This document shows positions 6,001 to 61,753 of a DNA stretch of 64,000 nucleotides, one piece after another. Every line of letters starts with the position of its first letter. Position 1 is the first letter of the stretch. The position numbers were made by a program, and so were the translations under genes. The notes under the pieces are model-generated. The model was not told the origin of the DNA, made no database searches, and was given only the letters and a program-made list of their open reading frames with translations. The DNA comes from Nemertoderma westbladi (lineage: Eukaryota; Animalia; Xenacoelomorpha): the NCBI GenBank assembly GCA_032718475.1, contig JAUCBJ010001588.1, positions 51,981 through 115,980 on the forward strand, given 5' to 3'.

Positions 6001-9000
6001 CCTATTGTCCAGCCCTCCATTCCTTACAGTGTTTGTCCTATTGTCCAGCCCTCCATTCCTTACAGTGTTTGTCCTATTGTCCAGCCCTCCATTCCTTACA
6101 GTGTTTGTCCTATTGTCCAGCCCTCCATTCCTTACAGTGTTTGTCCTATTGTCCAGTCCTCCATTCCTTACAGTGTTTGTCCTATTGTCCAGCCCTCCAT
6201 TCCTTACAGTGTTTGTCCTATTGTCCAGCCCTCCATTCCTTACAGTGTTTGTCCTATTGTCCAGTCCTCCATTCCTTACAGTGTTTGTCCTATTGTCCAT
6301 ATGTCCAGTCCTCCATTCCTTACAGTGTTTGTTCTATTGTCCAGCCCGCCATTCGTACAGTGTTTGTCCTATTGTCCAGCCCTCCATTCCTTACAGTGTT
6401 TGTCCTATTGTCCAGCCCGCCATTCCTTATACAGTGTTTGTCCTATTGTCCAGCCCTCCATTCCTTACAGTGTTTGTCCTATTGTCCAGCCCTCTATTCC
6501 TTACAGTGTTTGTCCTATTGTCCAGCCCTCCATTCCTTACAGTGTTTGTCCTATTGTCCAACCCTCCATTCCTTACAGTGATTGTCCTATTGTCCAGCCC
6601 ACAATTCCTTACAGTGTTTGTCCTATTGTCCAGCCCTCCATTCCTTACAGTGTTTGTCCTATTGTCCAGTCCTCCATTCCTTACAGTGTTTGTCCTATTG
6701 TCCATATGTCCAGTCCTCCATTCCTTACAGTGTTTGTTCTATTGTCCAGCCCGCCATTCGTACAGTGTTTGTCCTATTGTCCAGCCCTCCATTCCTTACA
6801 GTGTTTGTCCTATTGTCCAGCCCGCCATTCCTTACAGTGTTTGTCCTATTGTCCAGCCCTCCATTCCTTACAGTGTTTGTCCTATTGTCCAGCCCTCTAT
6901 TCCTTACAGTGTTTGTCCTATTGTCCAGCCCTCCATTCCTTACAGTGTTTGTCCTATTGTCCAGCTCTCCATTCCTTACAATGTTTGTCCTATTGTCCAG
7001 CCCTCCATTCCTTACAGTGTTTGTCCTATTGTCCAGCCCTCCATTCCTTACAGTGTTTGTCCTATTGTCCAGCCCTCCATTCCTTACAGTGTTTGTCCTT
7101 TTGTCCAGTCCTCCATTCCTTACAGTGTTTGTCCTATTGTCCAGCCCTCCATTCCTTACAGTGTTTGTCCTATTGTCCAGCCCTCCATTCCTTACTGTGT
7201 TTGTCATATTGTCCAGCCCTCCATTCCTTACAGTGTTTGTCCTATTGTCCAGCCCTCCATTCCTTACAGTGTTTGTCCTATTGTCCAGCCCTCCATTCCT
7301 TGCAGTGTTTGCCCTATTGTCCAGCCCTCCATTCCTTACAGTGTTTGTCCTATTGTCCAGTCCATCATTCCTTACAGTGTTTGTCCTATTGTCCAGCCCT
7401 CCATTCCTTACAGTGTTTGTCCTATTGTTCAGCCCTCCATTCCTTACAGTGTTTGTCCTATTGTCCAGCCCTCCATTCCTTACAGTGTTTGTCCTATTGT
7501 CCAGCCCTCCATTCCTTACAGTGTTTGTCCTATTGTCCAGCCCTCCATTCCTTACAGTGTTTGTCCTATTGTCCAGCCCTCCATTCCTTACAGTGTTTGT
7601 CCTATTGTCCAGCCCTCCATTCCTTACAGTGTTTGTCCTATTGTCCAGTCCTCCATTCCTTACAGTGTTTGTCCTATTGTCCAGCCCTCCATTCCTTACA
7701 GTGTTTGTCCTATTGTCCAGTCCTCCATTTTTTACAGTGTTTGTCCTATTATTCAGTCCTCCATTCCTTACAGTGTTTGTCCTATTGTGCAGCCCTCCAT
7801 TCCTTACAGTGTTTGTCCTATTGTCCAGCCCTCCATTCCTTACAGTGTTTGTCCTATTGTCCAGCCCTCCATTCCTTACAGTATTTGTCCTATTGTCCAG
7901 CCCTCCATTCCTTACAGTGTTTGTCCTATTGTCCAGCCCCCCATTCCTTACAGTGTTTGTCCTATTGTCCAGCCCTCCATTCCTTACAGTGTTTGTCCTA
8001 TTGTCCAGCCCTCCATTCCTTACAGTGTTTGTCCTATTGTCTAGTCCTCCATTCCTTACAGTGTTTGTCCTATTGTCCAGCCCTCCATTCCTTACAGTGT
8101 TTGTCCTATTGTCCAGCCCTCCATTCCTTACAGTGTTTGTCCTATTGTCCAGCCCTCCATTCCTTACAGTGTTTGTCCTATTGTCCAGTCCTCCATTCCT
8201 TACAGTGTTTGTCCTATTGTCCAGCCCTCCATTCCTTACAGTGTTTGTCCTATTGTCCAGCCCTCCATTCCTTACAGTGTTTGTCCTATTGCCCAGCCCC
8301 CCATTCCTTACAGTGTTTGTCCTATTGTCCAGCCCTCCATTCCTTACAGTGTTTGTCCTATTGTCCAGCCCTCCATTCCTTACAGTGTTTGTCCTATTAT
8401 CCAGTCCTCCATTCCTTACAGTGTTTGTCCTATTGTCCATATGTCCAGTCCTCCATTCCTTACAGTGTTTGTTCTATTGACCAGTCCTCCATTCCTTACA
8501 GTGTTTGTCGTATTGTCCAGTCCTCCATTCCTTACAGTGTTTGTCCTATTGTCCAGTCCTCCATTCCTTACAGTGTTTGTCCTATTGTCCAGCCCTCCAT
8601 TCCTTACAGTGTTTGTCCTATTGTCCAGTCCTCCATTCCTTACAGTGTTTGTCCTATTGTCCAGCCCTCCATTCCTTACAGTGTTTGTCCTATTGTCCAA
8701 TCCTCCATTCCTTACAGTGTTTGTCCTATTGTCCAGTCCTCCATTTTTTACAGTGTTTGTCCTATTGTTCAGTCCTCCATTCCTTACAGTGTTTGTCCTA
8801 TTGTGCAGCCCTCCATTCCTTACAGTGTTTGTCCTATTGTCCAGCCCTCCATTCCTTACAGTGTTTGTCCTATTGTCCAGCCCTCCATTCCTTACAGTAT
8901 TTGTCCTATTGTCCAGCCCTCCATTCCTTACAGTGTTTGTCCTATTGTCCAGCCCCCCATTCCTTACAGTGTTTGTCCTATTGTCCAGCCCTCCATTCCT

Positions 9001-9712
9001 TACAGTGTTTGTCCTATTGTCCAGCCCTCCATTCCTTACAGTGTTTGTCCTATTGTCTAGTCCTCCATTCCTTACAGTGTTTGTCCTATTGTCCAGCCCT
9101 CCATTCCTTACAGTGTTTGTCCTATTGTCCAGCCCTCCATTCCTTACAGTGTTTGTCCTATTGTCCAGCCCTCCATTCCTTACAGTGTTTGTCCTATTGT
9201 CCAGCCCTCCATTCCTTACAGTGTTTGTCCTATTGCCCAGCCCCCCATTCCTTACAGTGTTTGTCCTATTGTCCTGCCCTCCATTCCTTACAGTGTTTGT
9301 CCTATTGTCCAGCCCTCCATTCCTTACAGTGTTTGTCCTATTATCCAGTCCTCCATTCCTTACAGTGTTTGTCCTATTGTCCATATGTCCAGTCCTCCAT
9401 TCCTTACAGTGTTTGTTCTATTGACCAGTCCTCCATTCCTTACAGTGTTTGTCGTATTGTCCAGTCCTCCATTCCTTACAGTGTTTGTCCTATTGTCCAG
9501 TCCTCCATTCCTTACAGTGTTTGTCCTATTGTCCAGCCCTCCATTCCTTACAGTGTTTGTCCTATTGTCCAGTCCTCCATTCCTTACAGTGTTTGTCCTA
9601 TTGTCCAGCCCTCCATTCCTTACAGTGTTTGTCCTATTGTCCAATCCTCCATTCCTTACAGTGTTTGTCCTATTGTCCAGCCCTCCATTTCTTACAGTGT
9701 TTGTCATTTTCC
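1..9712. repeat. 33-bp tandem satellite (~290 units, consensus GTGTTTGTCCTATTGTCCAGCCCTCCATTCCTTACA-type), intronic, continues beyond window start
   Basis: Uninterrupted tandem array of unit gtttgtcctattgtccagccctccattccttacagt with point variants; degenerates at ~9705, 25 bp before a splice acceptor. Confidence 0.99.
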
Positions 9713-9737
9713 TTACAATATAAATTTATTTTTCTAG

Positions 9738-35530
<25,793 letters not shown>

Positions 35531-35821
35531 TCGACACACCAATTAATTGACTGTTTTATATACTGTAGGTAGATCAGTGAGTGAGCTGGTGGAATTAATT
35601 TGAATTCGTATTACAGTAGGTGCGACATTTTTTACTTTCTTGTCCGTATTTTTCGTATCTGCGATGGTGCTATGTTAATTATATTTAACTACTTGTAATC
35701 GACTTCCTTATATTTAAGTTTTTTATTAAATATTTTCATTGATAAATTCCCTCATGATAGAACAACTCGTTGTTTTCATAAATAAATATTGCTACACAAT
35801 AAATTCCTAGTCTACAGTAGG

Positions 35822-36992
35822 TGTTCGCGCTTTCAGACCTTTAGCAGTTTAACCTGCCAAATTAGGATGTCTTCTAGATAATAGATCGTCTTTAGCCTAC
35901 GACAAATATTTGATACACTACATTAGCCGAAACCAGTCTATGCGCGATCATTCACCCGCTGGATATACCCGGGAGACTGGATTCGGAAGCCTAACCGTAT
36001 TGCGGGGTAGGCCTACTGTATTATTCGACTGATCGTAATATATATAATCTCTGACAAATATTATTCACTTTCGGGAAATATTAACAGTTCCTTTAGGACG
36101 TGGCGCTCTAAATATGTAAACAGAGTTATGACTTATACTAGACACAACAGGATGGCTATAGATTCACGTATATGGCGCATTCTTTAGGAGATGCTTCATT
36201 ATCAATCACGATCACACACAACGCTGCACAATGCTGCACACCAATCTGCCGACCTTCACCAATTTTAGTCACATATAAAGAGAATAACAGACAATACATG
36301 TAGGGCCTATAAAATAGCATTAGATTCACTTCAAACCACTGAATGTAAGTCGCAATCGTTATATGTAACCGGTCTCTCTAACCTTTAGTATATCAAGAAG
36401 ATTGGGGTGTCTGATTATTGATCAGTATTCCAAATATAATATTCCATCAACAAATATAATGAATAACCGACAGTAAATAGCAGTACAAAGTTTAAGGTGT
36501 GAATGGTTATGAGTGATGACCGAATAAGTTGGTTTGTTAAGTAAGATAACGGATATACGTTCTATAATTAAGCCTACTAATGTTGATGCTAAAGACTGAA
36601 ACACGGAGGTTCCACGCCGGTGTTGTAGGCTGTGGACAAAATCACATACTGACTCAACTCCACGAGTTTCTATCTACCATCTCCAACACAGAGTCCAAAA
36701 AACGCTCTGATTGGTCGACCGAACAAAGAGAGAACAAAGAACAAAGAGATGTTCTACGTGGCAATATCAGCTGTTAGCCGTCGTCATGGTAGCTACACTG
36801 TTTCAAGAGGATCCGGCGTATTGTGTCATAAAATTGCGGATTATGTCCGCTAAAGTACACATACAGAAGAAATTACTTTTATGTCCTCTAAAACACCAGT
36901 ACAGTAAGGACACGGCATTTTTATGCCTGGTAAACCAACTACAGAGTACTTTACGGGGAAAATAACCAGCTAATTACGCAAAAGCCTTTACA
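35822..36992 (-). repeat. 3' LTR of element A
   Basis: Direct repeat of 48402-49572; minus-strand TGTAAAGG...GCGAACA. Confidence 0.95.
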
Positions 36993-37001
36993 CCGCTCCC
37001 A
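36993..37001 (-). promoter_or_regulatory. polypurine tract
   Basis: Minus strand TGGGAGCGG directly abuts the TG of the 3' LTR; identical in element B at 61754-61762. Confidence 0.7.
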
Positions 37002-37095
37002 GAAAATGGGATTTAAGTCTATAAAATATAACAAATCACAGTTTCTAAAATATAAAAATACTCTAAACAGTTAGTCTTTCTTACGCGGACGGCGT

Positions 37096-38214
37096 TTACG
37101 CAGTTTTTTTGAGGCTAGCAAGAGTCCTTTTCTCTTTGGGGCGAGCCACTTTACTAGGAGGGCTGTAACTCCTGGGTGAAGGGTGCAATACAATTGCATC
37201 AGATGGTTTAGGATTACGATCGGTGTATCCGCCGGTTGAGGTACCTGGTTGATCGATATCAACCTCAGTGGAGCGAGGTCTAACGGCCTTTAGGGCGCGT
37301 CTTAGGACAGCAGCTCCTACGGGTCCTTGACGGGTCGTCTGGACAATGGCGGTAGGCGGACCGTGAGTGGTGAGAAACTTCCTTGGTTTAATGGTTCTTT
37401 CCAGCTCGCGTTCTCGGGCTCGATATTCGTAGGGCCGTCGAGATACTTCCTGTAACTCAGGGTGCGAGTTGATAAATAAATCGCCATACTCAGGGTCTTG
37501 ACGGATGTAATTGATCAAATGGTATGAAGTAATATCGTTAGGATTGACATTCCTAAGGTATTTTCGAACGAATTTGGTGGAAATACACTCACCAACACGC
37601 TTCATTAGTTCGTAACTCGGTGTGCGTGTTTTTTGTTCCACAGACGCGAATAAATAAGGATGGAACGCGTAAACTCCCTCGTAAGAGCGTCCAGGGTAGT
37701 AGCGATGGCGGGACTCACAATGTAAATCCGCGTTCGCTTCCCAAGCTCGGATGTAGCGCAGGGTAATCATCTCATCTACGCTCTCTAAATCGCGATTAAA
37801 GGGGCAATTATAACTGGCATGTCCTTTAAGTTGACAGTGGTAGCATTGAGTTATAAATTGGGGGCAGACTGCAAAAATATGAGAGTTATTAAGTCTGCAA
37901 TACGCACAATATATCTCCATCATCGGTTGTTCGTGGAAATAGGAGCAGGGTACGTCTGAGTCCATAGGGGTGAAATGGTCTCTCGATGCGCATAATCGAC
38001 AACGTTTTCGAGAAACATAGTTAGCGTGTCGATAATCGTATGCGGTGAGACATTGTAGACCTTGATACCACTCTAAGACGTAGTCGTTATCGCTGCTCCG
38101 GGGCACTGTAGGCCGAATCGCTTCAGCTTCTAAGCATATTGGTTCGTCTTCCAATTGCATAGCTGAGGTAGGTGCAGCTGTCTCCGCAAGCGGACCCACT
38201 GTCTGGACTTCCAC
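37096..38214 (-). CDS. accessory ORF, C-terminal segment: three CCHC zinc-knuckle-like motifs and a basic tail
   Basis: CRLCASRDH..C, CAYCRLNNSHIFAVC, CYHCQLKGHASYNC (canonical CX2CX4HX4C); 372 aa. Confidence 0.7.
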   Translation of the reverse strand: MEVQTVGPLAETAAPTSAMQLEDEPICLEAEAIRPTVPRSSDNDYVLEWYQGLQCLTAYDYRHANYVSRKRCRLCASRDHFTPMDSDVPCSYFHEQPMMEIYCAYCRLNNSHIFAVCPQFITQCYHCQLKGHASYNCPFNRDLESVDEMITLRYIRAWEANADLHCESRHRYYPGRSYEGVYAFHPYLFASVEQKTRTPSYELMKRVGECISTKFVRKYLRNVNPNDITSYHLINYIRQDPEYGDLFINSHPELQEVSRRPYEYRARERELERTIKPRKFLTTHGPPTAIVQTTRQGPVGAAVLRRALKAVRPRSTEVDIDQPGTSTGGYTDRNPKPSDAIVLHPSPRSYSPPSKVARPKEKRTLASLKKTA

Positions 38215-40135
38215 GACAGAATAACCCGTGGGTATTCGGGGTCTTTGTATAACAGATGAATGTAAGTTCTGTATACAAACGTCCTGAAAAAGGGCAAATC
38301 CCGCGCTGTTTAGCTTCTCCGCAGCTGAGTCTCTCAGGCTGAGTTTGGTCAGAGCGCGGTCCTTGAACTGACTTAAGCAGGTCTCTATACTTTAAATATT
38401 GTGTGGTATATGTTTCCACATCTCCATATCGTTGTATTCTTTCTTCCTCGAATAACACGTCAAGATTCCAGTGTACTAAACGAGTTTTGATGAATCCATC
38501 AAGATTATACGGAGGTATCGTTTCTTTCTCTATTCTGGAAACATTATATGGTTTTCGAAATAAGTTTACTTTAACTAACTGATCCAGATGTTTCTGCAGT
38601 TGTTCGAGTTCAACAAGATCGAGAGGATTTATTAGTGGTAGAAACTTCAGACTATGTGTAGGATCTTCCGGTTTTACCATGTAATATTGTGTTAGGTTGA
38701 CGTAATAAGGGTGATCTTTGATCCCATAAAACGAGTCCGGTAAAGGTCTAGCGCGTATGTTAACATCGTGTACCATGCGACGGACAAGATCCGCTCTATT
38801 GTCCGGAGGTTCAACGAGTATACCATCGACACGAGCGGCTTCGATGGGCGGACGCTGTAACATGGGAGCGTCAGCGATAAGATCTCGAGATCTTAGGTTG
38901 ATATCAACCGGTTGGGGTTGTACCGTCGCAAAGAGTTTGTCTCCGAAATGGGGAACCATCGAGGGATGAAGGATGGTTTTAGAGTAGAGATCCGTCATAA
39001 GGATTTGAGCTTCGGGTTGAGCTAAAGCTGCTTCTTCTCTCTCATCCAGTTCTATATGTCTCTCCTCGAGCTGATTTTCCTCCGCTTGTTGTTGTAGACG
39101 CTCATCTAGGAACTCTTGTAAAGAGTAGGTTCGTCCACGTTCGATGTCCTCCTTGAGATTTTGTATTTCTCTATCGAACTGGGGTAAAGCTAATTCCTTC
39201 ACCGCTTGGACTTGTTGCAATTTACGTTTCTCCAAACAATCGTAAGTTCCCTTTCCGATTTTCTGCCGAATAGCGTTTAACGCGTTTCGTACGACGCTCT
39301 CTTCGACTTCCGAAACGGGTTGGATCGAGGTGAAGCCGGGACGGTTGTATGGGTTAAACGGCGATATTAGATGACCGCGTCCCAATCCAGCTAGGTAGGG
39401 TTGGCGAATATCTAGTGATCCTACTACCGGGGTGCCACCGATCAACTGTTCGGGTAACACTAGATCTTTGAACAGTGAGTACAGTTCGGGAGGATCCGTG
39501 ATACTATTAGGATCAAGAGTCTGAGGTCTAACTGAGGAATGAGGAGGTCTGACCGAGTATTCCGGAACTCTGATCATCGGTTTGTTCAAGGATCGTTTGA
39601 GTCGAGCGACCGTAGGGGATACGTCGAACAGGTTTCGCTCGAAACTCCCATAAGTATATCGTGTAAAACTGTGTTTAGCGCAACGTCTCCGCGGATGTTT
39701 ATGTCTTTCCGTTTGCTGATTGGGTCTAGGGCATTCGTCGCAGTAATACCAAAGACGCACGTCCTGCAGGGGAAACGCGGGTGATCGTTCTCCAGTTTTA
39801 CAATATTCCTCCATCTGTTCGAAGCTATCTGGGACGACAGGTAGCGGTCGATCGGCGGTAAGATACATCATAGTGAAATAGAGTCGTTTGAGTTCTATCA
39901 TAGGATCATGATGTATACCTTGAGGATATCGAGTTTCGAGATTTTGTTGGCTGGCAATATTGAGATATGTCTCTCTCAGGAATTCCAGATAATCGTTGAA
40001 GTCACTGCGTTTATCTGGCTCTTCAACGTCTTCCCTTTCGAGTCTGTTTCGAATAGAGTTCTCGTGTTCTATTCTCGGTTTATCGTTCCGACTCCGCTGG
40101 GTATGATAAAACCATTTCCCTTTCGGTATCCACAT
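38123..40135 (-). CDS. accessory ORF, main segment: Cys/His motif and coiled coil, function unknown
   Basis: 670-aa open frame; YYCDECP..HKH..RRCAKH; E/Q-rich heptads; decayed homologue in element B. Confidence 0.75.
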   Translation of the reverse strand: MWIPKGKWFYHTQRSRNDKPRIEHENSIRNRLEREDVEEPDKRSDFNDYLEFLRETYLNIASQQNLETRYPQGIHHDPMIELKRLYFTMMYLTADRPLPVVPDSFEQMEEYCKTGERSPAFPLQDVRLWYYCDECPRPNQQTERHKHPRRRCAKHSFTRYTYGSFERNLFDVSPTVARLKRSLNKPMIRVPEYSVRPPHSSVRPQTLDPNSITDPPELYSLFKDLVLPEQLIGGTPVVGSLDIRQPYLAGLGRGHLISPFNPYNRPGFTSIQPVSEVEESVVRNALNAIRQKIGKGTYDCLEKRKLQQVQAVKELALPQFDREIQNLKEDIERGRTYSLQEFLDERLQQQAEENQLEERHIELDEREEAALAQPEAQILMTDLYSKTILHPSMVPHFGDKLFATVQPQPVDINLRSRDLIADAPMLQRPPIEAARVDGILVEPPDNRADLVRRMVHDVNIRARPLPDSFYGIKDHPYYVNLTQYYMVKPEDPTHSLKFLPLINPLDLVELEQLQKHLDQLVKVNLFRKPYNVSRIEKETIPPYNLDGFIKTRLVHWNLDVLFEEERIQRYGDVETYTTQYLKYRDLLKSVQGPRSDQTQPERLSCGEAKQRGICPFSGRLYTELTFICYTKTPNTHGLFCRGSPDSGSACGDSCTYLSYAIGRRTNMLRS

Positions 40136-40400
40136 CGTCTGTATCGTGTAAATCGATAGGATGGCCGGTAGTTAAGAAGTCCATATACGTACCATTACGA
40201 TGCGTATAGCGAGCGGTGAACTTTCTATAGTCCAATTCATGCGTAAGTTGCTCCGGGGACATTGGCGGTTCGATATAACGACCATCATCCTCAGTAGTAG
40301 TTGGACCAGCGTCGCCGCGTATCAAGCTATCGACAAACGCTTGTAAAGGTAGAGTATATCGCTCCCTGATGCCAAGATCATCTTCTATCAACTCAGTCAT
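40080..40400 (-). CDS. accessory ORF, N-terminal segment (106 aa)
   Basis: ATG-initiated; homologous sequence at 62812-63117. Confidence 0.6.
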   Translation of the reverse strand: MTELIEDDLGIRERYTLPLQAFVDSLIRGDAGPTTTEDDGRYIEPPMSPEQLTHELDYRKFTARYTHRNGTYMDFLTTGHPIDLHDTDDVDTEREMVLSYPAESER

Positions 40401-41218
40401 ATCTGCTATGAGTTTATCAATATTATAATGAGTTTATATATTAGGCTAGCGGGCGTCGCTGCCTACCCCTCTTTTGCCCCTGGACAGTGTAAGATCCTCA
40501 GCGCCGATGTACCGTCGTCGCTGTGCTTTCGCCAACGATGTAGCTACACCACGACAACGATAACCGGCACAAGTCACTCCACTGTCCGTCCCAAAGGCTT
40601 AGATGTACTTCAGGTTCTTTCTGGAGAGTTAGGGCTACTTTCACAATTGCGACTCGCTACTGTAAACACACTTTAGCAGTAACATCCACCTATGAACGCA
40701 CAAATTCAACACAACTGCCATAAACTGTACACATTCAGGCCATTTGTCCGTTAGTCAGTACCTTCCAGAATGTCACTGTATTTATTATGTATCCTTGGAT
40801 ACTAGCAGTGCGCTATTTATTCCGTATGCTATTCAATGGACAAGCCTTTTATTGTTCTTTTAACTCACTTCTAATTGTAGCGTGGTTGTTGCCATGGTGA
40901 CATTATGGAAAGCTAGCGGTAGAATTAGGGTAATTCTCATGCATACAGATCTGGGATGCTATTTAATAGTAATTCTTTAATTGTCAATATCCTCTCCATA
41001 TATGACTTTATGAATTTTATTGGCTATTGACTATATATTGGAGATTCTCGCATACAAATACACTTTATAGAGTGAATCTCCGCTCCCATGATCTATTAAT
41101 TAATGGAATTTTGGGAATGTTATAAATTGTATAAAATGACAATTTATTAAATTCATTGAAATATATGAATTTAAATTTATTCCCTTAAATTTTATTATTT
41201 AATGTTAAATAGACACAA

Positions 41219-41484
41219 TTTTATTCCAGAATGTGTCGGGGGACTGGGATCCTTGATTCTAGGAATTTTGTCTTTTTAAGAGTATCGGTAAGTGCTACGA
41301 TATCTTAATCGACTAGAATTTTAAAGGATCTGATATTTGACAGATTTTATAAATATTAATGGTTAATATTTAAGATGGGCACCAGTTTATTCCAGAACTT
41401 GTCTGGGGACGTTAACCACTGATTCTAGAATTTTGTCTTTCAAGTATATCGGTGGGTGCCGCAATATCTTAATCGACTAGAATT
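41219..41484. repeat. two diverged ~100-bp direct repeats in the pol-accessory ORF spacer
   Basis: tttattccagaa...atatcttaatcgactagaatt at 41219-41320 and 41387-41484. Confidence 0.75.
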
Positions 41485-42037
41485 ACAGATGGTCAAAGGG
41501 TTTAACAGATTTATTTTGCGTTATACGCTACTGTTAAAAGGACATCACGCTACTATATGTATTATTTAATATACGGTATGAGAGCAATATCGCACAAAGC
41601 AATGTCAGTGTGAAGAGGCAAGTCGTTTCCAAGGTCTACCCAGAGCTTGGTTTAGCCGAGACACGAGGATCTGAACTTTGCATTCCTAATACTCTGCCTA
41701 CCAATAATACTTAAATATAGTAGGAGCTTTATTGTACTTTAATAAGTACGGACATTTCATCTTACTGTAGTTACGTATTTGTAAGGTAATACGGACAGTA
41801 AGGAAGGAGAAAAAGAATTATTTCTCGCCGTCGCACTAAATATATAATATGTAAGTAATTAAGTAATAAACGCGAATATATATTGCACTAATCTACTAAA
41901 TTATCGCTAAAATAACATTCTACTAAATAAAATTAAATAAAACGATTATAATAAAATTACATAACAATACATACATAAATATAAAATAATAAGAATAAAT
42001 ATAAAATAATATAGTCACACACCCACTCCGTATGTTG

Positions 42038-44494
42038 TTACGTTATGGAGTCCCTAGATATTTGTTGAATTAGGGAGGTGGTCGTGGGAAGAGTATCTTG
42101 CCTTCCACAGCTTCCGGACAGTTCTCGGTCTCTTTCCAGTAAACATAAACGACCAGCTGGGCGATTGAGTGGTTGCGTTACTTTCTCCGCTCCCTTGGCC
42201 TTTCTAATCTTAGCCGGGTTAAGGTGGGGAGGCCATTCATCTTCTTTACTTAGGAAGTCGGGTTCACCTAACCAGTCTGGAGTATCCGTCAGTTCTTGAG
42301 GAGTTGCTCCTCTGGAGGCGATGTCAGCTAGATTAATCGTCTCGGGGCAATGTCTCCATTGATCTACATTGGAGTTGATGTCGTCATTATCTGAGGAGTA
42401 TGGTCTTCCCTCAGTTGGATCGTCTAACTCACTGCTCTCATCTTCCCATTCTCTTACTTGATATACCTGATCTTTCGGTAATCTTTCCATGAGAGTTCTA
42501 CGGGAAGGGCCAGTAAAGTACCAACCCACTCTAGTTCTTCCCGCATAAGCTTGTAGTGGTTGCGGTTGAGCAGGCCGTTTCTCCAATGTCTCGAGCGCTT
42601 CATGCGCGTTTTGACCGCTGAGTATTTGGACTCCAGGGTAATCGGTGTTGAATCTAGGTATTTCAAGCTGCTGGGTGAAATCGTCCTCATCCCAGTTATA
42701 AGGTTCCACTTGGCTGGTAGCGAAGTTCTTTATCGCTACCAATTTTACTGACCTTATGCTGTGTTCTCCTAGTTCATCCTGGGGGGTGGACAACGCGCCT
42801 ACATAATAATCCGCTATTACGGTAGATTTCCAAACCTGCATAATTCCTGACATGTTTAGCTTAGTTCGGAATTTGGGTTGTCCAGCAAAGATGTCTTCGG
42901 CTAGTTCTTTGTCGATGAATGCTCCTGTGCTACCGGAGTCAAGGAGGGCGTTCACTATATAACTCCTTGTAGGTCCGTGGACCCTTAACTGTACTACAGG
43001 AAATTCTCGGATTCCTACATTGGAAATTGGTGCTTTCCAAGATGGTTGTCTGTCAGAAGTAGTTAGGGTGAGCTCGCTGTCGGTGTCCTTTTCATACGTA
43101 AGTGCTCGATACACTGCGGTATTTGTCAGGTAACAGGATTCGTTTTCATCGGAGAATTCGTCCGTATAGAATCCTTCCATCTCAGATTGATCAGTGTCGT
43201 TCACATCACTGAATTGGACATGTAGTTCGGAATCACTTACCTGACTCGGACTATTTCGCTCGAATTCAGTGTGCAACAAGATATGATGTTTTGCGCCGCA
43301 CTTTGCACACCTTGCGTCGGAGTAACAGGTTCGCCGTTGGTGTCCTCGTCTGAGGCAATAACAACACAACCGCTTATCCCACATGACTTCCCATCTCTCC
43401 GCTAATGATTTCTTCAGGAATTCATCACACATATTCAAACGGTGGGTCCCGTCACATAGCGCACATTTCGGTTTGATATTACTTACCTTATTTTGAATAA
43501 CATTGTGCACACTCGTTCTTTCTTCGGGCTTTCTCACCTGAATTATCTTGGGAGACGTAGGAGGAGTTTTTCTTACCTGTTCTCTCCTGTCATTGGTTCG
43601 AGACTTGAATTTACTTACCTGTTCTTTAGGCGTTTTATTGACATAATAAGATCTTTCAGTGTCTTTCCCGCTATCCTCTCCTTGAGAAGTCTGGCTTTCG
43701 CCGTCGTCTGTATAACACACTGGTGTTACTTTTCTCCTAGAGACGGGTTTCTCACTTACCTTGTTTTCCGGTGTCTTCTCTCTGGACTGCTTTATGAGCT
43801 GTAATTTCACTTCGCCATCCAAGAATGACATGAGATCAGCCATGGTAGGGTCTCGTTGTTGTTGTTCCATCATATATAAAACTTTCTTGTCCCAGCGTGT
43901 ACCTACTCCACCCTTCGGTAAAGTAGAAGCCACTGCTCTAATAACCATAGCACTCTGATACTCATGAGACTTACCTAGCCAATCTAATTGTCTGCAGATC
44001 TCCTGAATCTCATCGGAAAACTCTATAATCCCGCTGCTAATAAACTTTCGGGGCGCTACCAACTTTGCATACAAATACCCAGCTATGTTATTCCTATTAC
44101 CATACCTGAAGTTTAGGGTATCCCAAACTTGCCTTAATCCGTCTGGATGTCCAATAAACTTTAACGCCATTAACTTGGGAGATCCTTCCAAGCACTCGAT
44201 GAGGAATCTAAGTTTCTCTCCATTAGATAGTACAGAGTTCTGTATGTTATCTTTATAATATTCATTAAAAGGTAACCATTTCATCTCATCTCCATTGAAC
44301 TTGACGATCTCTCCCACCTTTACCGCTTGCCGGGCTTCGGTTCTAGCCATTTGACGCGTAAAACTTTCTTGGGCCATCGTGTTATTTAATATCGAGCTAT
44401 CGGTATATAAATTTCTCGGATTATAATCAGGTCTATAGGGAATATCACTATCAACAGGTCTATAATTACCCTTAATAGGGTTTACTATAGGAGT
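42038..44494 (-). CDS. BEL/Pao Gag core + aspartic protease fused to RNase H and integrase C-terminal stubs
   Basis: FNGDEMKW..F..EKLRFL..L.G (DUF1759-like), CALCDGTHRLNMC, CCYCLRRGHQRRTC, CAKCGAKHHILLH, ALLDSGSTGAFI, TRVGW, QWRHCP..NLADIASRG..W..P.FL..EWP, RPAGRLCLLE; frame is open upstream of the ATG at 44377 to ~44494. Confidence 0.93.
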   Translation of the reverse strand, partial: TPIVNPIKGNYRPVDSDIPYRPDYNPRNLYTDSSILNNTMAQESFTRQMARTEARQAVKVGEIVKFNGDEMKWLPFNEYYKDNIQNSVLSNGEKLRFLIECLEGSPKLMALKFIGHPDGLRQVWDTLNFRYGNRNNIAGYLYAKLVAPRKFISSGIIEFSDEIQEICRQLDWLGKSHEYQSAMVIRAVASTLPKGGVGTRWDKKVLYMMEQQQRDPTMADLMSFLDGEVKLQLIKQSREKTPENKVSEKPVSRRKVTPVCYTDDGESQTSQGEDSGKDTERSYYVNKTPKEQVSKFKSRTNDRREQVRKTPPTSPKIIQVRKPEERTSVHNVIQNKVSNIKPKCALCDGTHRLNMCDEFLKKSLAERWEVMWDKRLCCYCLRRGHQRRTCYSDARCAKCGAKHHILLHTEFERNSPSQVSDSELHVQFSDVNDTDQSEMEGFYTDEFSDENESCYLTNTAVYRALTYEKDTDSELTLTTSDRQPSWKAPISNVGIREFPVVQLRVHGPTRSYIVNALLDSGSTGAFIDKELAEDIFAGQPKFRTKLNMSGIMQVWKSTVIADYYVGALSTPQDELGEHSIRSVKLVAIKNFATSQVEPYNWDEDDFTQQLEIPRFNTDYPGVQILSGQNAHEALETLEKRPAQPQPLQAYAGRTRVGWYFTGPSRRTLMERLPKDQVYQVREWEDESSELDDPTEGRPYSSDNDDINSNVDQWRHCPETINLADIASRGATPQELTDTPDWLGEPDFLSKEDEWPPHLNPAKIRKAKGAEKVTQPLNRPAGRLCLLERDRELSGSCGRQDTLPTTTSLIQQISRDSIT

Positions 44495-46410
44495 TTATTT
44501 CTACTTCGCTAGCAGTATAGATGCGTGTAGGCTCCACACCTTGCGCATGAGATACTTCAGACCTAATAGGTTGACATATTGTTACAGAGGGTGGTGATAT
44601 ACCCTTTTGTAAATGTACTAATTTACTTTGCTGCACTTCTTGCAACTCTAACCTACTTTCCTTTATGGTTCCCTCCATCTTTCCGAGGAGAATATCCATC
44701 CCCCGCCGTCTCTCGTCTACCCAATCAACCGCCGAAGCGGGATCCGCCAACGTTGTAGCGGGCAGACGAGGGACTACGGGCGATATATCCTTTATATTTC
44801 GCTCGGAGTCCAGGACCGACACTGTTTCAGGGGCTGTTCCTCTAGGCACAGATAATTTGGTGCTGTGTAAAGGGAATTTAAAGGTAGGTTCTGGGAGTAC
44901 AGGTGTCTCTATCACCGAAGGGGTGATTTCAAGAACAGGCCTAATTATTTCAGGCTCATCTACTATAGTAGGGAGTCTTTCTATTTTAATTATTTGGTCT
45001 GTGGGTTCTGTACTACCTAAGCCTGCGCTAGTTAGTTGTCTTTTAACAGCTGGGGGCAAATCAGGCAATTTCTGATGGTGAGATGTTCTTCTACATCTGC
45101 TTAGACGAGATCTATTTCCCCCGCCTTCAGCATCGGTGGTATCGCCTTCCTCAGATGATGTATATCCCTGTCTTTTGGGAGTAGATCGATTCATCATCTG
45201 CATATTACTAGCTGTTAATTGTTTATTGATGTTGTCTTGCCTCTCTTGAAGATTTTCCAATTCTAGTTGGGTGGTCTCTTCAGCCGCTCTCCGTTCTGCT
45301 TCTGCCACTGCCACTGCCGCTTTTCTTTCCATGTCGGCTGCTTTTCTTTCCGCTTCTGCCGCTGCCACTGCCGCTTTCTTTCTGTCTTCTATCTGTTTTT
45401 TCTTTACTTGTTCTTCTTGGACTCTAGCAATGCGGAGTTGTTCATCAAATTTAGCTTGGTTCGCAGCTATCCTATCCACATCGATTGCGTCCAACACAAG
45501 CTTGGCTCCCTCACTATTAGGGCTAAGTCCACATCCACTGCGATTTCCACGGGGCAGCTCTTTGAACTTGGAGACTCACCCGCTGTAACCAAGTCTTTAC
45601 GGCAACTTGCAACGACGTGTCTTGCTTTCTTTTCGAAGCCTCCTCAAAGGCAGATAAGATTAGTCTGATTCTTAGAATTCTTTCTCTAACTTGATAAAGC
45701 AGCTCTCCCTGCTCTTGAGGTCCTTGTGGTTGTCTAAACAGTTGCTCCTCTAATCGCTCCATAGAGCTGAAGAATCCCTGTACGTATCCGGCTGCTGACC
45801 TCTTCCATACAGCTGGATCGATGGTTTCCTTTGTTACTCCCATCCTGTGTATGTCTTCCCAAGCAGCTTCTGATAAGTCAAACGGTAGTCCGGGTCCGGG
45901 GAAGCTCCATTGCGACTCGACAATAGACTTCAGTTCTTCCCGTATATATCCCGCATAACTATCCTTGGTCGATCGCTTACTTCTCGCCCAATCAATCTGG
46001 TGTTCCTCCACCGCAATCAATACCCTGGTGAGTACGGCTGCAGGAAGGATGAGAAGGGGATCCGAATAAACCGTATCCGCTATCTTCGCGTTCGGGCATT
46101 AGCTCAACAGTCTCAACAGACTACTGGAGCTCTCGGGCCGCTGAGAACTAGGTTCTTGGCTAGGAGGTTGCTGCTGTTTGACAGCTGCTTCTTGATCCCG
46201 CTTAACTTGGGCCCGAGTACCGATGATAGACCTACGGTGTTGGATTAGCCTAGGGTCTGATATTACTACAGGAGGGATGACCTTCCTCACAGTAGGAGGT
46301 GAACTGAACTTAGGTCTAGATGGTTCTACACCCCTATCTGAGTCGCAGATAGTTACATCTAATAAACTGTCTGACAGGTTCTGCTTAGTATCAGACATGT
46401 TTGTTTGCAC
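44472..46410 (-). pseudogene. frameshifted N-terminal Gag extension (coiled-coil and Pro-rich), in three ORF pieces
   Basis: ORFs 46099-46410, 45523-46020 and 44472-45497 lie end to end on the gag strand. Confidence 0.65.
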
Positions 46411-46537
46411 AGTTGAATGCTTACTGCTATATTACAGTCTAAGCAAGTCTAGTAATTCAGTATTAACTGTTAGCCTAGTAACTAATTACCCATACTGCTA
46501 CTCAGTGCAGCGTGATATATATATAATATAATATATT

Positions 46538-46790
46538 AGAATACCGGTATGCTTATAGTATATATAAATTTTATAACAGACTAGGTTTGTCACAGAATAC
46601 CGGTATATAATTTTAGCACAAATATATATAAATATATAATAGGCCTATCGTGAATACCGGTATACAGCTTACACCTATAGTATATATATAAGTATAATTA
46701 TTAACTAGAATTAATTACAGAATACCGGTATAATTACAGCCTAAATTTATAAATATATAATAGGCCTATCGTAAATACCGGTATATCAAT
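46538..46790. repeat. five degenerate ~60-bp repeats with core AATACCGGTAT in the element A leader
   Basis: Cores near 46540, 46596, 46653, 46721, 46774. Confidence 0.7.
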
Positions 46791-47486
46791 TATTTTAAAT
46801 AATTGAATTTCTGAATTTTAGGGGTTACTTGGTTACTTTGCTTACTTTATTACCGTTATTTGAGCAGTAGTCCAACTGATATTGAGACCTAATTGTTGTA
46901 TGGTATGTTGTATTTTTAGGGTAATTTTACAAGAAGCCTACAAACCAGCCTAACAAAGGGTTAGAATTCTGGTTATTACAAACGGACAGGATACTACGGT
47001 ATTTGAAAATAATAAGCAGTAGTAAATATATTGCGCTGTCCAGATAGGAAAAATACCACCGTCTGACGACCTATAACCGTATCGCTATAGGTACTACGTT
47101 ATGTATCACGGAGTGTTCCTACCTGGAAGTTAATTACCGCGGTCTACCAGAACCAACGTGCCTATTAACCACTTTACAACACAAATATACTGCCTACACA
47201 CTAATCACCTTCGGAAAGTACTGTACACTAAACCCTAAATTAGGTACAAGTACTTGTACAACAAATAATCAGTCGTTAAAAATACTTGAACAGCTAAAAG
47301 AACCACGGTATCTGCCGGAGTGACCAAAGCATAAAATCTCCAGTCTTTACCTACGCCAAGCAGCCCTGATGTAGTACCGGGGTTAGTTTAACTATAACGG
47401 TATGTATAACAAGCACAATTACTGTAGGAATAAACTTGGGGATATGAATGTTGCGAATAATCGCATAAACTCTGAATAATAAATAT

Positions 47487-48055
47487 TACGCTACGCGTAC
47501 AGACTACTCAAACAAAATGCAGACCAAATACTGACAGACTACTATCAAGCCCAAACAAACTACGGTATATGCAGACTCCGAAATGGTTAGTTAGTATGCG
47601 TTCTAACCGAGTAGTACGACTTATTCTTTCAGAGGGGGTTTACCTCACAGCACTGGAAGCCCCTACGTTCCCAACTGGCACTTTATCGGACATACACTCT
47701 ACACACACCGAAATTTCCTCAGACCTAACAACAGCCAGACAACTATCCAGCCTACAAATTATCTAAATAAGAATTATACGCTACCTGTACAGACTACACA
47801 AACAAAGTACAGACCAAACGATGGCAGACTACTATCAAGCCTAAATAAACTACAGTATATGCAGACTCCGAAATGATTAGTTAGTATGCGTTCTAACCTA
47901 GTAGTACGACTTATTCTTTCAAAGGGGGTTTACCTCACAGCACTTGAAGCCCCTACGTTCCTAACTAGCACTTTATCGGACAGATGCTCTACACACACTG
48001 CAATCCGTTCAGACTTAACAACAGTTAGACAACAGTCAAGCCTACAAATTATCTG
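47487..48055. repeat. tandem 290-bp duplication in the element A leader
   Basis: 47487-47765 matches 47777-48055. Confidence 0.9.
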
Positions 48056-48401
48056 TACAATCTGAGCAGGCTTACACGCCTTCTGCTCAATATTAACCTA
48101 CTAGTAAATAAAACTGACAGAAATAAGTAAAATCTCAATAAAAAACCAAGGCTGCAGTCCCTGATTAATTATTAAGGCCTACCGGTATATAACTATCAAA
48201 ATCGAATAATACTGCTGTACATGTACTGCTGTAGGTACCGGTCCGGGTGGTTAGGTAGTCAGGCCTACTGGGTACCGGTTGGCCGGTACTTCAGCTTTAT
48301 TGCCTACTGCAATACAGAAGCAATATCCGTTATTGTTCTTACCAGAACAATATTAAACTGTATTTATTGCCTACCCTGCAATTAGACGAAATATCCGTTA
48401 T

Positions 48402-49572
48402 TGTTCGCGCTTTCAGACCTTTAGCAGTTTAACCTGCCAAATTAGGATGTCTTCTAGATAATAGATCGTCTTTAGCCTACGACAAATATTTGATACACTA
48501 CATTAGCCGAAACCAGTCTATGCGCGATCATTCACCCGCTGGATATACCCGGGAGACTGGATTCGGAAGCCTAACCGTATTGCGGGGTAGGCCTACTGTA
48601 TTATTCGACTGATCGTAATATATATAATCTCTGACAAATATTATTCACTTTCGGGAAATATTAACAGTTCCTTTAGGACGTGGCGCTCTAAATATGTAAA
48701 CAGAGTTATGACTTATACTAGACACAACAGGATGGCTATAGATTCACGTATATGGCGCATTCTTTAGGAGATGCTTCGTTATCAATCACGATCACACACA
48801 ACGCTGCACAATGCTGCACACCAATCTGCCGACCTTCACCAATTTTAGTCACATATAAAGAGAATAACAGACAATACATGTAGGGCCTATAAAATAGCAT
48901 TAGATTCACTTCAAACCACTGAATGTAAGTCGCAATCGTTATATGTAACCGGTCTCTCTAACCTTTAGTATATCAAGAAGATTGGGGTGTCTGATTATTG
49001 ATCAGTATTCCAAATATAATATTCCATCAACAAATATAATGAATAACCGACAGTAAATAGCAGTACAAAGTTTAAAGTGTGAATGGTTATGAGTGATGAC
49101 CGAATAAGTTGGTTTGTTAAGTAAGATAACGGATATACGTTCTATAATTAAGCCTACTAATGTTGATGCACGGAGAAACACGGAGGTTCCACGCCGGTGT
49201 TGTAGGCTGCGGACAAAATCACATACTGACTCAACTCCACGAGTTTCTATCTACCATCTCCAACACAGAGTCCAAAAAACGCTCTGATTGGTCGACCGAA
49301 CAAAGAGAGAACAAAGAACAAAGAGATGTTCTACTTGGCAATATCAGCTGTTAGCCGTCGTCATGGTAGCTACACTGTTTCAAGAGGATCCGGCGTATTG
49401 CGTCATAAAATTGCGGATTATGTCCGCTAAATTACACATACAGAAGAAATTACTTTTATGTCCTCTAAAACACCAGTACAGTAAGGACACGGCCTTTTTA
49501 TGCCTGGTAAACCAACTACAGAGTACTTTACGGGGAAAATAACCGGCTAATTACGCAAAAGCCTTTACTACA
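48402..49572 (-). repeat. 5' LTR of element A
   Basis: About 10 differences from the 3' LTR by eye. Confidence 0.95.
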
Positions 49573-50157
49573 GTAGGACCTCCACATGTTTGTAGGCACC
49601 TAATCGCCCTATCCTACCAGGCCATATCATCCAGTGATGGTTCATCTGTTACCAACCTTGCCAAGAACCGAAAGTTACACCCTTGGGAAAGTACTACAGT
49701 GACGTGTCTCCAAGTTTATAGTACAACCAATGGCGGTCGAGACCTTGGGCGGTCATGTACAAGCACCGTGGACTTTCTCCCCGAACTAGGCCAGCCTAGT
49801 CGAGAAAGTTAGTGGGAATAAGAGGACCATTAAGCATCTGCGCCAGTAGTGCATTGGGGGCGGGGTCTACGTTCAGGCAGACAATGCTGCATGTATTAAG
49901 GAATCCTTTGGCTCAGGAGATCTAACACTTTTATATTTTACACTTTAGGCACTTAAGTATACAGTACATTAGGCCCCCTAGACCCTACATATAAATTTAA
50001 GTGAACAAGTTGCCCGAACATCACAGAGACACAAGTACAGCCCGTAGCTAACTAAACCAAAAGGCGTAACCGAGATTTATAGTACAGTCGGCCCCTAATA
50101 CATACAGTATGCCACAGCTGTCTCGCTTCCATCATAATTCGTTACCATACATACTTA

Positions 50158-53904: not shown

Positions 53905-55242
53905 TCAATTCAATTGCCCAACATTATTTATATGTTTTTTCTCCATATGGGCGTTTAAGTAATACCTTTTGGTAAATAACTTATTGCAATGAACACAGAT
54001 GTATTTGATGCCCTGATGTACGAGTTCCCGATGTCTCTTGAGTCCCTGTCTGTCGGAGTAAACGCTGTCGCAGAGCGCGCACCCGTACTTTCGGCCTTTA
54101 TGGATGGCCTCGATGTGCAGCTTGAGACTCCAACTGGTCACGAAGGTTTTATCGCACTCGGTGCAACTGTGTTTCATATGATTATGAACGGCGTCGACGT
54201 GCCGCTTTAAACCCCGGATATCCGCGTACATTTTTTCGCAGGAATCGCAGCCATGTTTCGCTGACTTAGCGTGCGAGAACTTTAAATGTTTCTGAAGGCC
54301 GGAGGAATCGGTATAAACTTTATCGCATTCCGTGCAATTATACTTAATACCCCGGTGAATCGCTTCGATGTGTTTAGTTACACCCAAATTATCGGAATAG
54401 AGTTTATCGCAATAAAGACAACTGTACTTCTTCCCTAAATGAACGGATTCTCGATGCCTCCGCAGGTATCTTTTATCTTTAAATACTTTATCGCATTGGT
54501 GGCAGTTATAAGTAATACCTCGATGAACTGAGTCAATGTGTTTCTTTAGAATATCCCTTTTCGCGCACAACTTATTGCAGAGACTGCAGGTGTAATTAAT
54601 ACCTCTATGTATGAAATCAATATGGGTCTTTAGGTGACCTTTGGTTGCGTGTTGACTAGGGCAATGCGGACAATCATATTTAATTCCTTTATGGACGGAG
54701 TCGATATGTTTATCGAGGTTGTCTTTATTTGAACATTTTTTCTCGCAAAGGAAACACACATGTTTGTGACATTTGTGAGCGAATTCTATGTGTCTCTGCA
54801 ATCCGGTTTCCGATTCGTATTCTTTTCCGCACTCGAAACAAACGAACCCGAATTCCGATTTTACAGATTCTTCGAGATGTTCAGATTTTACTTCGGGAAC
54901 ATCAAAATTAAAACCGGAAGAAATGTCCCCGCAGTTTAAATTATCATATTGGAAGTGAGTAGGATCGTTATTATATTCTCCTTGTGTCTCATAAGGATGA
55001 AGTGGTTCATTTTGAGTTTCCATACCGGTACCCGTACCCGTACCAGTAGGTTCTCCATTATGTAGTACAATTACAAACTTATCTCCCGCCAGAATTTGAT
55101 TGTCGTCTGCGATACCATGCCGGTAATCGTTCTCAACCTTTACTTCTATATTTCTCACTGTTTTTTCTTTATCAGGGGAGATATTTATCGCAGCGTTGTC
55201 AGAGTGAGTCATTATACCGGTACCGGTATTGTTCGTCGACAT
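53905..55242 (-). CDS. C2H2 zinc-finger protein (11 HX4H-type fingers, H.GIKY linkers)
   Basis: Intact 445-aa ATG-initiated ORF with eleven CX2CX12HX4H units. Confidence 0.92.
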   Translation of the reverse strand: MSTNNTGTGIMTHSDNAAINISPDKEKTVRNIEVKVENDYRHGIADDNQILAGDKFVIVLHNGEPTGTGTGTGMETQNEPLHPYETQGEYNNDPTHFQYDNLNCGDISSGFNFDVPEVKSEHLEESVKSEFGFVCFECGKEYESETGLQRHIEFAHKCHKHVCFLCEKKCSNKDNLDKHIDSVHKGIKYDCPHCPSQHATKGHLKTHIDFIHRGINYTCSLCNKLCAKRDILKKHIDSVHRGITYNCHQCDKVFKDKRYLRRHRESVHLGKKYSCLYCDKLYSDNLGVTKHIEAIHRGIKYNCTECDKVYTDSSGLQKHLKFSHAKSAKHGCDSCEKMYADIRGLKRHVDAVHNHMKHSCTECDKTFVTSWSLKLHIEAIHKGRKYGCALCDSVYSDRQGLKRHRELVHQGIKYICVHCNKLFTKRYYLNAHMEKKHINNVGQLN

Positions 55243-56167
55243 ACTGACATATTATAGATAATTACAGAATTAGTTTAAGAAGTATTGACTAGTATGTAGT
55301 GAGTGAGTACTGCAGTATGTGTCAGATTCATTACCTTACTGCATTATATTTAATTTCTTACAGCCATGTTCTGTTAGTATGTGTTCTGATGTTGCTTCTA
55401 CCGTCTGACCTTAGTAATTGCAATGTTTTGCAATGTAATTCAGTAATTGCGACGTTTTAATCTATTTTACACAAAAAATTAAAATCAAATTTTGCTTTAA
55501 AATTAATATAGGCCAAGCACCTAGCCTACAGGCCTACAGTACAGCAGTACCCTACTCAGCTACTACTGACGCAATATGTTTAGAATATAATATTTTAGTT
55601 TTTATTACTTTTTCTTTGTACTTACAGATTTCTGGATTTATGTTGGTTTTACTCATTGCTCACCCTACAGTGTAGGCCTATACGTTACTATCGCCGTTCA
55701 GCCGTTTTTAATCTAGGCAGCTAGGTGTACTGTCTGACTGTACAGTGTACACATAAACATTTATATCCATTTTAGATTATAAATAATACTGTCAGACTGT
55801 AGCAATACTAGTTTTATTAAGCCTATATAAATTTTGTGAACGTGGTAAACATCTGAACAAATCGTTGTGAATCTATGTTCTGATGTTGGTTTTCATTATT
55901 TCGTACTATGACTGTATGACGACTTCATATAACTTGTATTTTGTTAGTGCAGTAGTGGGTGCCTTATACTGTTATACAAGACATTTATTTCTACACCCGT
56001 ACATTATTGATTTGCTTACCTTGATATCTGACTGTTGCATATTAAAACTGTATTATGGTTTTGAAGGCTACAGCCCTACAGCCTACGGTGCAACTGTGAA
56101 CTGGATGGTTATACATTACTCAGTTACTGCATTATACAACAATACCTACCGTACCGGTACTGCTGCA

Positions 56168-60563: not shown

Positions 60564-61753
60564 TGTTCGCGCTTTCAGACCTTTGGCAGTTTAACCCACC
60601 AAATTAAGATGTCTTCTAGATATTAAATCGGTTTTTAGTCTATGACAAGTATTTGATTCACTACACTAGTCGAAACCAATCTGTGCGCGATCATTCACCC
60701 GCTGGATATTCCCGGGAGATTGGGTTCGACGGTTTAATTTTATTGCTATGTAAGCCTAATGTATTATTCGACTGACAGTATTATATAATCTCTGACAATA
60801 TTATTCACCTTCGGGAATATTAACAGTTCCTTTAGGACGTGGCGCTTTATCTATATAAACAGAGTTATGACTTAAACTACTCACAACGATATGGCTCAAT
60901 TATAATTCACATATATGGCGCATTCTTTAGGAATTGCTTCTTTAACAGACTCGCTCATACACAATGCTGCACAATACTGCACACTAATCTGCCAATCTTC
61001 ACTGATTTTAGTCACATATAAAAGGAACACAGACTGACTCATGTAGGGTCTATCAAATAACATTAGATTCACTTCAAACCACTTTAACATAAGTCACAAT
61101 CGTTATTGGTAACCTTTCTCTCTTACCTTCGGTATATCAAGAATATTGGGTTTCGGGGTTATTTATCGTTATTCCAAATATAATAATTCATCAACCATAT
61201 TATGAAGAACTGACAGTAAATAGCAGTATAAAACAACAATGAAAACACTGATTGTTATGAGTTTGCAATGTTTCAGCAGTCAGTATGTATGATCAGTTAG
61301 CAGTTAAAGGATATATGTCCTTATAATTAAACCTACTAGTGTAAGACTAAAAACTGAAACACGGAGGTGCCAAAAGCCGGTTCTTAGGCTCTGGGCAAAA
61401 ACATAACACTGAACTACTGAGTTTCTGTATATACCTCCAACACAGAGACAACAAACGCTCTGATTGGTCAACCTGAACAACGAGAGAACAAAGACAAAGA
61501 AACGTCGACGTGGCAATATCAGCTGCTAGCCGTCGTCATGGTAGCGACACTGTTTTCAAAGTATCCAGCTATTGCGTCACGAGATTGTGGATTATGTCCT
61601 CTAAAGTACAAATACAGTACAAATACATAAGAAATGACTTTTATGTCCTCTAAAACACCAGTACAGCAAGGACACGGCCCTTTTATGCCTGGCAAACCAA
61701 CTACAGAGTACTTTAAGGGAAAATAACCGGCTAATTACGCAAAAGCTTTTACA
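60564..61753 (-). repeat. 3' LTR of element B
   Basis: Starts tgttcgcgctttcagacc, ends cttttaca, followed by the same PPT. Confidence 0.92.

Follow-up and report, generated by a model that had tools for sequence, protein, structure and literature searches.

Organization of element A

The window (the whole stretch of 64,000 nucleotides that was analysed) contains a retrotransposon of the BEL/Pao lineage, here called element A, and a sister, element B, which has its LTR and 3′ regions in common with element A and is full of stops. The coordinates of their features are collected in Table 1. By pairwise comparison the two LTRs of element A are 98.9% identical, and this identity, together with the target-site duplication, argues for recent mobility; LTRs so nearly identical indicate, we infer, that the element was recently copied by a partner. 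The purine-rich tract comprises 8 nt, including one C. At the outer end of the 5′ LTR (49572-49568) three additional letters follow the first TG in comparison with both 3′ LTRs, and they are the same as the target sequence beside the duplication. The leader, about 2 kb long, carries tandem duplications of ~290 nt at 47471-48054 and of ~107 nt at 46515-46785, besides the one described below.

The 818-aa frame matched DUF1759 in a Pfam search (E 7e-11). Each of its six database homologues is a long polyprotein in which PF05380 and PF18701 occur, and DUF1759 is present in five of the six. Deletions in pol leave Gag, protease and a remnant of the RNase H end in one open frame, and past the protease just ~45-70 aa align with the pol of relatives. 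Because this match is so short and no reverse transcriptase was detected in a Pfam search of its frames, element A is, judged from its sequence, a non-autonomous element of BEL/Pao descent and not a typical member. Its Gag-PR product looks as if it were still selected in this non-autonomous family. No close protein relative was found in the libraries searched, where the best match reached 36% identity. The 682-aa and 431-aa frames, which follow the pol remnant and precede the 3′ LTR (37096-40171, minus strand), are partly common to element B; neither had a Pfam or database match and neither was recognised as an envelope protein. The 431-aa frame has a basic end besides its knuckle-like motifs.

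Table 1. Features of element A and of the 3′ LTR of element B, in coordinates of the window.
Feature	Position	Strand	Remarks
Element A	35822-49572	-	BEL/Pao-lineage retrotransposon; span 13.75 kb
Target-site duplication CCTAC, upstream copy	49573..49577	-	borders 5′ LTR
5′ LTR of element A	48402..49572	-	1171 nt, TG..CA, 3′ end ..GAACA
CCAAT motif	49287..49291	-	also in element B (61467); putative promoter role
TCAGT initiator-like motif	49225..49229	-	also in element B (61412); candidate start ~90 nt upstream of primer, prediction only
TATA-like TTAATTATAG	49142..49151	-	just upstream of predicted primer
Exact complement ATATCCGTTAT in 5′ LTR	49126..49136	-	LTR position 437 of 1171; predicted self-primer, putative function
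11-nt site ATAACGGATAT	48391..48401	-	primer-binding position, offset 0 after 5′ LTR; not TGG
Second copy of 11-nt site	48323..48333	-	in duplicated leader unit
367-aa frame	44472..45575	-	upstream of gag; no Pfam match
818-aa frame	42038..44494	-	BEL-type Gag (DUF1759), zinc knuckles, protease-like motif, short RNase H-end remnant
682-aa 3′ frame	38123..40171	-	no family found
431-aa 3′ frame	37096..38391	-	Cys/His knuckle-like motifs; best feature score 0.88, a lead only
Purine-rich tract GGGAGCGG	36993..37000	-	adjoins 3′ LTR; same letters in element B
3′ LTR of element A	35822..36992	-	TG..CA
Same 11-nt complement in 3′ LTR	36546..36556	-	duplicate of predicted primer
Target-site duplication CCTAC, downstream copy	35817..35821	-	borders 3′ LTR
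3′ LTR of element B	60564..61753	-	80.6% identical to element A 5′ LTR; 5′ end of B beyond window
Element B version of LTR complement, ATATCCTTTAA	61304..61314	-	positions 7 and 11 differ from A

A primer-binding position complementary to the LTR

The preliminary description had reported that the 11 nt directly after the 5′ LTR offer no TGG primer-binding site and that their exact complement lies within both LTRs; both statements were confirmed. Its two caveats, a TATA-like sequence shortly upstream of the complement and a differing element B LTR at that place, were likewise right. The first TGG after the 5′ LTR occurs at offset 57, and as a primer site it was rejected as too distant and, by eye, as lacking what we take to be a T-arm pattern. 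The complement is located 724 nt ahead of the 5′ LTR end. When the LTR was subjected to dinucleotide shuffling, a complement of at least 11 nt arose at offset 0 in 2 of 5000 shuffles and at offsets 0-5 in 12 of 5000. Only three of 1300 leader start positions reach 11 nt, none more, and two of the three are the 11-nt site and its duplicate. With every ACA tried as the LTR end, the best pair was obtained at the true end and was equalled in 2 of 100 shuffles. The published criterion for self-priming, as given in the accessible text of PMC6317226, is an LTR complement of at least 10 bp to a site starting 0-5 nt past the LTR, and element A passes it with 11 nt at offset 0. The complementarity is genuine and clearly exceeds chance expectation.

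The duplicate belongs to a tandem repeat in the leader, whose units at 48406-48339 and 48338-48271 are identical over their first 17 nt and diverged beyond; the final 5 nt of the LTR and the 11-nt site recur in this manner 68 nt downstream (48338-48322), a duplication absent from the preliminary description. A primer spliced within element A itself was rejected, as the best junction match measured 8 nt and was equalled in 74 of 100 shuffles. Rfam gave no match across 46300-49700, and ARAGORN reported no tRNA in the 64-kb window.

Variation of the site within the family

Variation was read from family contigs of four of the seven listed runs (X1, X3, X4 and X5). The assembly may derive from X1, and the other three runs come from other studies, X5 under another organism code. 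At seven of the 11 site positions no variant is found at 2% or more. At position 1, T stands for A in 44% of the depth in X1 (25 contigs), 34% in X3 (10 contigs), 16.6 of 20.1 in X5 (one contig) and 0 of 384 in X4, and T is the sole alternative listed to A. The LTR partner of this position is T in element A and A in element B, and two loose ends of X5, at 48920 and 48565, match by eye the LTR letters of the B type. We infer one compensated pair of site and LTR in the family, A/T versus T/A, from contigs that are unlinked, are not haplotypes and have depths that do not equal copy number.

The preliminary description had proposed that compensatory changes be sought in other copies. The pair at position 1 switches in step, but for the change at position 7 of element B (G to T) the family contigs offer no corresponding site variant that reaches 2%, and element B as it stands would therefore pair at 10 of 11 positions, unless a rarer partner exists. 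An ordinary TGG site, also sought in family members, is found in none of the 22 listed of 51 loose ends. Three further site positions vary in X1 and X3, respectively: position 6 (15% and 10%), position 8 (7% and 5%) and position 10 (2.7% and 0%). These variants would break the pairing with the primer of element A unless the LTR partner changes too, and among the loose ends they look, by eye, like degenerate internal leader units. The drop in depth directly past the site was set aside as evidence of conservation, since the leader duplication accounts for it.

A metagenome search with an 18-nt LTR-end pattern returned 10 loci, which were dropped as chance matches because none resembled the LTR beyond ~35 nt. 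Of two sets of candidates from viral contigs, numbering 6 and 42, none was confirmed.

Promoter motifs and predicted folding

The CCAAT motif (49291) and the TCAGT motif (49229), both present in element B too, suggest a transcription start near 49227. If TTAATTATAG acted as a TATA box, the start would presumably be near 49116, at what we take to be the usual spacing, and thus downstream of the predicted primer. The promoter motifs of element A would allow starts on either side of that primer.

In folding predictions the site pairs with its complement at a probability as high as 0.94 only for the RNA 49136-48380. The value is 0.87 for 49136-48300, which includes the duplicate site, 0.00 for 49136-48150, and at most 0.23 for RNAs starting earlier than 49136. 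Folding favours the pairing for some RNA ends only, in predictions made for an RNA this long and in the absence of Gag. The predicted 11-nt duplex amounts to only -12.0 kcal/mol. Element B has a strong splice-donor-like site at 61126, downstream of the primer, element A a weaker one at 48962, and acceptor-like sites lie beyond; an intron after the primer, if real, would shorten the 724-nt loop.

Self-complementary sites in distant BEL/Pao loci

Scanning of prokaryotic assemblies yielded 14 BEL loci (L011-L024), located in bins and in one Wolbachia assembly, which are most likely contaminating host DNA. Ten were examined, and the fragments L013, L014, L022 and L024 were left out. At L021 a copia-like element is nested inside the BEL leader; this insertion, on the opposite strand, was dropped (L021b), and the BEL element is referred to as L021a. 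Splice junctions were defined by a GT[AG]AG donor and a YAG acceptor with at least 6 pyrimidines in 12 positions, a rule that was loosened after a stricter first version had missed the L021a junction.

Six of the ten loci (L011, L012, L016, L018, L019 and L021a) have an 11-14 nt complement to the post-LTR site in their own LTR, across a predicted splice junction. One more is near (L017, with 12 of 13 nt, which fails the perfect-match test), one is too short to read (L015), and two have a TGG after the LTR and a self-complement of at most 4 nt (L020 and L023). The complements of L011, L012 and L021a are 11 nt each, at offsets 1, 2 and 0, and were reached in 1, 3 and 0 of 300 shuffles. In L018 and L019, where the LTR end was not given, 11 nt directly after an ACA were reached in 1 of 100 shuffles each, and the 14 nt of L016, obtained only without the requirement for an ACA end, in 0 of 100. 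All positive loci stand at 0-1 of 100 shuffles except L012, whose LTR end is inferred and whose score was reached in 10 of 100 shuffles with that end open and in 3 of 300 with it fixed. L019 and L021a have one sequence in common and are not independent. L011 and L021a have no TGG, and without splicing their contiguous complements are only 8 and 7 nt. In L011 and L012 the predicted first exon closes with the complement, at distances of ~95 and ~190 nt from upstream motifs of the TATA or initiator-like kind.

Crossing sites with LTRs in a 4x4 test gave a score of 11 for cognate pairs and of 5-8 for non-cognate pairs. The difference in letters from family to family provides the strongest argument that it is the pairing which has been conserved. 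In a quick tree of polyproteins the self-complementary loci form one clade (SH-aLRT 99), with L020 and L023 outside. In a quick Gag-PR tree element A falls on the self-complementary side (97), on a long branch of 2.22 and with no relative above 36% identity, and it thus groups only weakly with these loci.

Comparison with known priming systems

Pairing in Tf1 involves the first 11 bases, with RNase H cleaving between bases 11 and 12, according to the accessible parts of PMC7175516 and PMC4600332. Self-priming has been demonstrated for Tf1 and predicted for certain other gypsy and certain copia lineages; Tf1/sushi, Tcn1 and copia TAR are the reported or predicted cases in the accessible parts of PMC6317226, PMC4600332, PMC5341516, PMC7175516 and PMC3601003. 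As far as the accessible descriptions go, element A resembles Tf1 and Tf2 of Schizosaccharomyces pombe, Tj1, and the Tf1/sushi and Tcn1 groups of Ty3/gypsy in having an 11-nt post-LTR site complementary to its own LTR and no tRNA site. Unlike the chromoviral Tf1/sushi elements, its Gag and the homologues of that protein are of the BEL type and not Ty3/gypsy. Membership of the Tf1/sushi group would also call for a duplex inside a supporting leader structure (a U5-IR-like stem); the pairing probability predicted for element A ranges from 0.00 to 0.94 with the RNA ends chosen. In contrast to Tf1, its predicted primer is probably internal and lies 724 nt from the site, its relatives build the primer across a predicted intron, and it is without a reverse transcriptase and an intact RNase H of its own. 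Self-priming of the plant Ty1/copia elements TAR, Houba and Osr-1 was predicted by the same criterion (accessible text of PMC6317226); they belong to another superfamily and kingdom than element A, and theirs is likewise a prediction only.

The family Belpaoviridae is described by the ICTV (PMC8742986) as encoding PR, RT, RNase H and integrase, with LTRs of 0.2-1.2 kb, a purine tract of ~10 nt, a genome of 4.2-10 kb, and tRNA-primed replication from an 18-nt site for tRNA-Arg or tRNA-Gly; BEL/Pao replication is called poorly understood there. Element A agrees with this description in Gag family, LTR length (1171 nt) and purine tract, and departs from it in that the 18-nt tRNA-Arg or tRNA-Gly site is absent, most of pol is missing and the span is 13.75 kb.

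Probable self-priming and alternative explanations

We consider it likely that element A primes reverse transcription with a piece of its own RNA, independently of a tRNA, and that this primer is probably internal rather than 5′-terminal as in Tf1. The preliminary description had left a choice between self-priming and a leader stem. Self-priming is the best reading in view of the published criterion, the one pair that switches in step and the complements in distant BEL loci, while the 5′-terminal geometry of Tf1 was not borne out. That strict geometry is probably unneeded, since the complement of the relatives is placed at the close of a predicted first exon, ~95-190 nt past the likely start; as their complement sits internally, a start upstream of 49136 would be compatible with self-priming.

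The scheme that we propose is modelled on Tf1 in all its steps. Transcription would begin within the 5′ LTR, no further downstream than 49136, with a candidate start near 49227, and the 11-nt LTR segment would fold onto the post-LTR site, probably with the help of Gag. RNase H from an autonomous BEL partner would then cleave immediately 3′ of the duplex and so release, as happens in Tf1, a 3′ end from which the reverse transcriptase of the partner would copy the rest of the LTR (724 nt unless spliced) before jumping to the 3′ LTR. In the relatives the primer would be assembled across the predicted intron, and the family of element A would represent an intron-less form with the primer ready-made. 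To a wider proposal we give even weight for and against: that a large branch of BEL/Pao gave up priming by tRNA in favour of an internal self-primer, which is usually put together when the host splices an LTR intron, and that the family of element A is an intron-less offshoot, its primer ready-made 724 nt from the target, that spreads without a reverse transcriptase of its own.

Alternatively, the pairing might exist and be under selection for its structure, as a long-range stem in the leader that serves packaging, dimerisation or the control of translation, and some other primer would then be in use. The distance of 724 nt to the partner would suit such a stem, as would the probably internal location of the partner in the RNA and the ability of the duplicate site to take over and lengthen the pairing in one fold. 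We nevertheless regard it as unlikely, because the pairing begins exactly where minus-strand synthesis is required to start, and because 11-14 nt recur in unrelated families in place of a TGG site, with no other primer site apparent.

An accidental match in a family without reverse transcriptase, or a functionless by-product of template switching, is in our judgement quite improbable. A scan of this kind covers very many elements, so that an event of 1 in 400 to 1 in 2500 is expected somewhere, and the LTR end is locally duplicated in the leader; degenerate sites on some family contigs point the same way. Yet the site is mostly invariant across a high-copy family in which one pair switches in step, LTR identity and target duplication speak for recent mobility, and the pattern is repeated at 6 of the 10 distant loci examined. 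Less probable again is priming by a host RNA (half of a tRNA, an atypical tRNA fragment or some other small RNA), with the LTR match incidental. The site of element A has no TGG, its complement is without the anticodon-loop pattern Y-T-N-N-N-R, and the site varies by family together with its LTR partner, a pattern that an unchanging host RNA would leave unexplained. In comparing element A with half-tRNA-primed elements of the Osser, Bryco and Bianca type, whose site is complementary to half of a tRNA, the analysis covered this loop pattern. Half-tRNA priming as such is known in Copia lineages (accessible text of PMC6317226).

Significance of probable self-priming in BEL/Pao

No paper reporting that BEL/Pao elements prime themselves came up in our literature search; subscription papers, Repbase notes and bioRxiv supplements lay outside it and may already describe the phenomenon. 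The words primer and tRNA were not found in the BEL surveys PMC554778, PMC3118150 and PMC6238403, the accessible parts of PMC8220671 and PMC13524379 contain nothing on BEL priming, and none of three short motifs occurs in the accessible content of nine supplement files of PMC3118150. If BEL/Pao elements do self-prime, then all three LTR superfamilies do so, and they would provide a new test case for whether hairpin priming is ancestral or was repeatedly invented, a question raised in the accessible text of PMC3601003. An internal and sometimes spliced primer would be a geometry unlike that of Tf1 and, where spliced, would tie the start of reverse transcription to splicing. Self-primed elements would presumably evade silencing by 3′ tRNA fragments, and annotation tools that demand a tRNA site would overlook them.

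Other features of the window

Positions 1-9715 are occupied by a tandem array of 36/72-nt units, in which a 3019-aa open frame runs past the window start. Two frames with multiple C2H2 zinc fingers are located at 21957-23426 and 53905-55251, and several frames for LINE-type reverse transcriptase and endonuclease at 11541, 25426, 28153-31081 and 57298.
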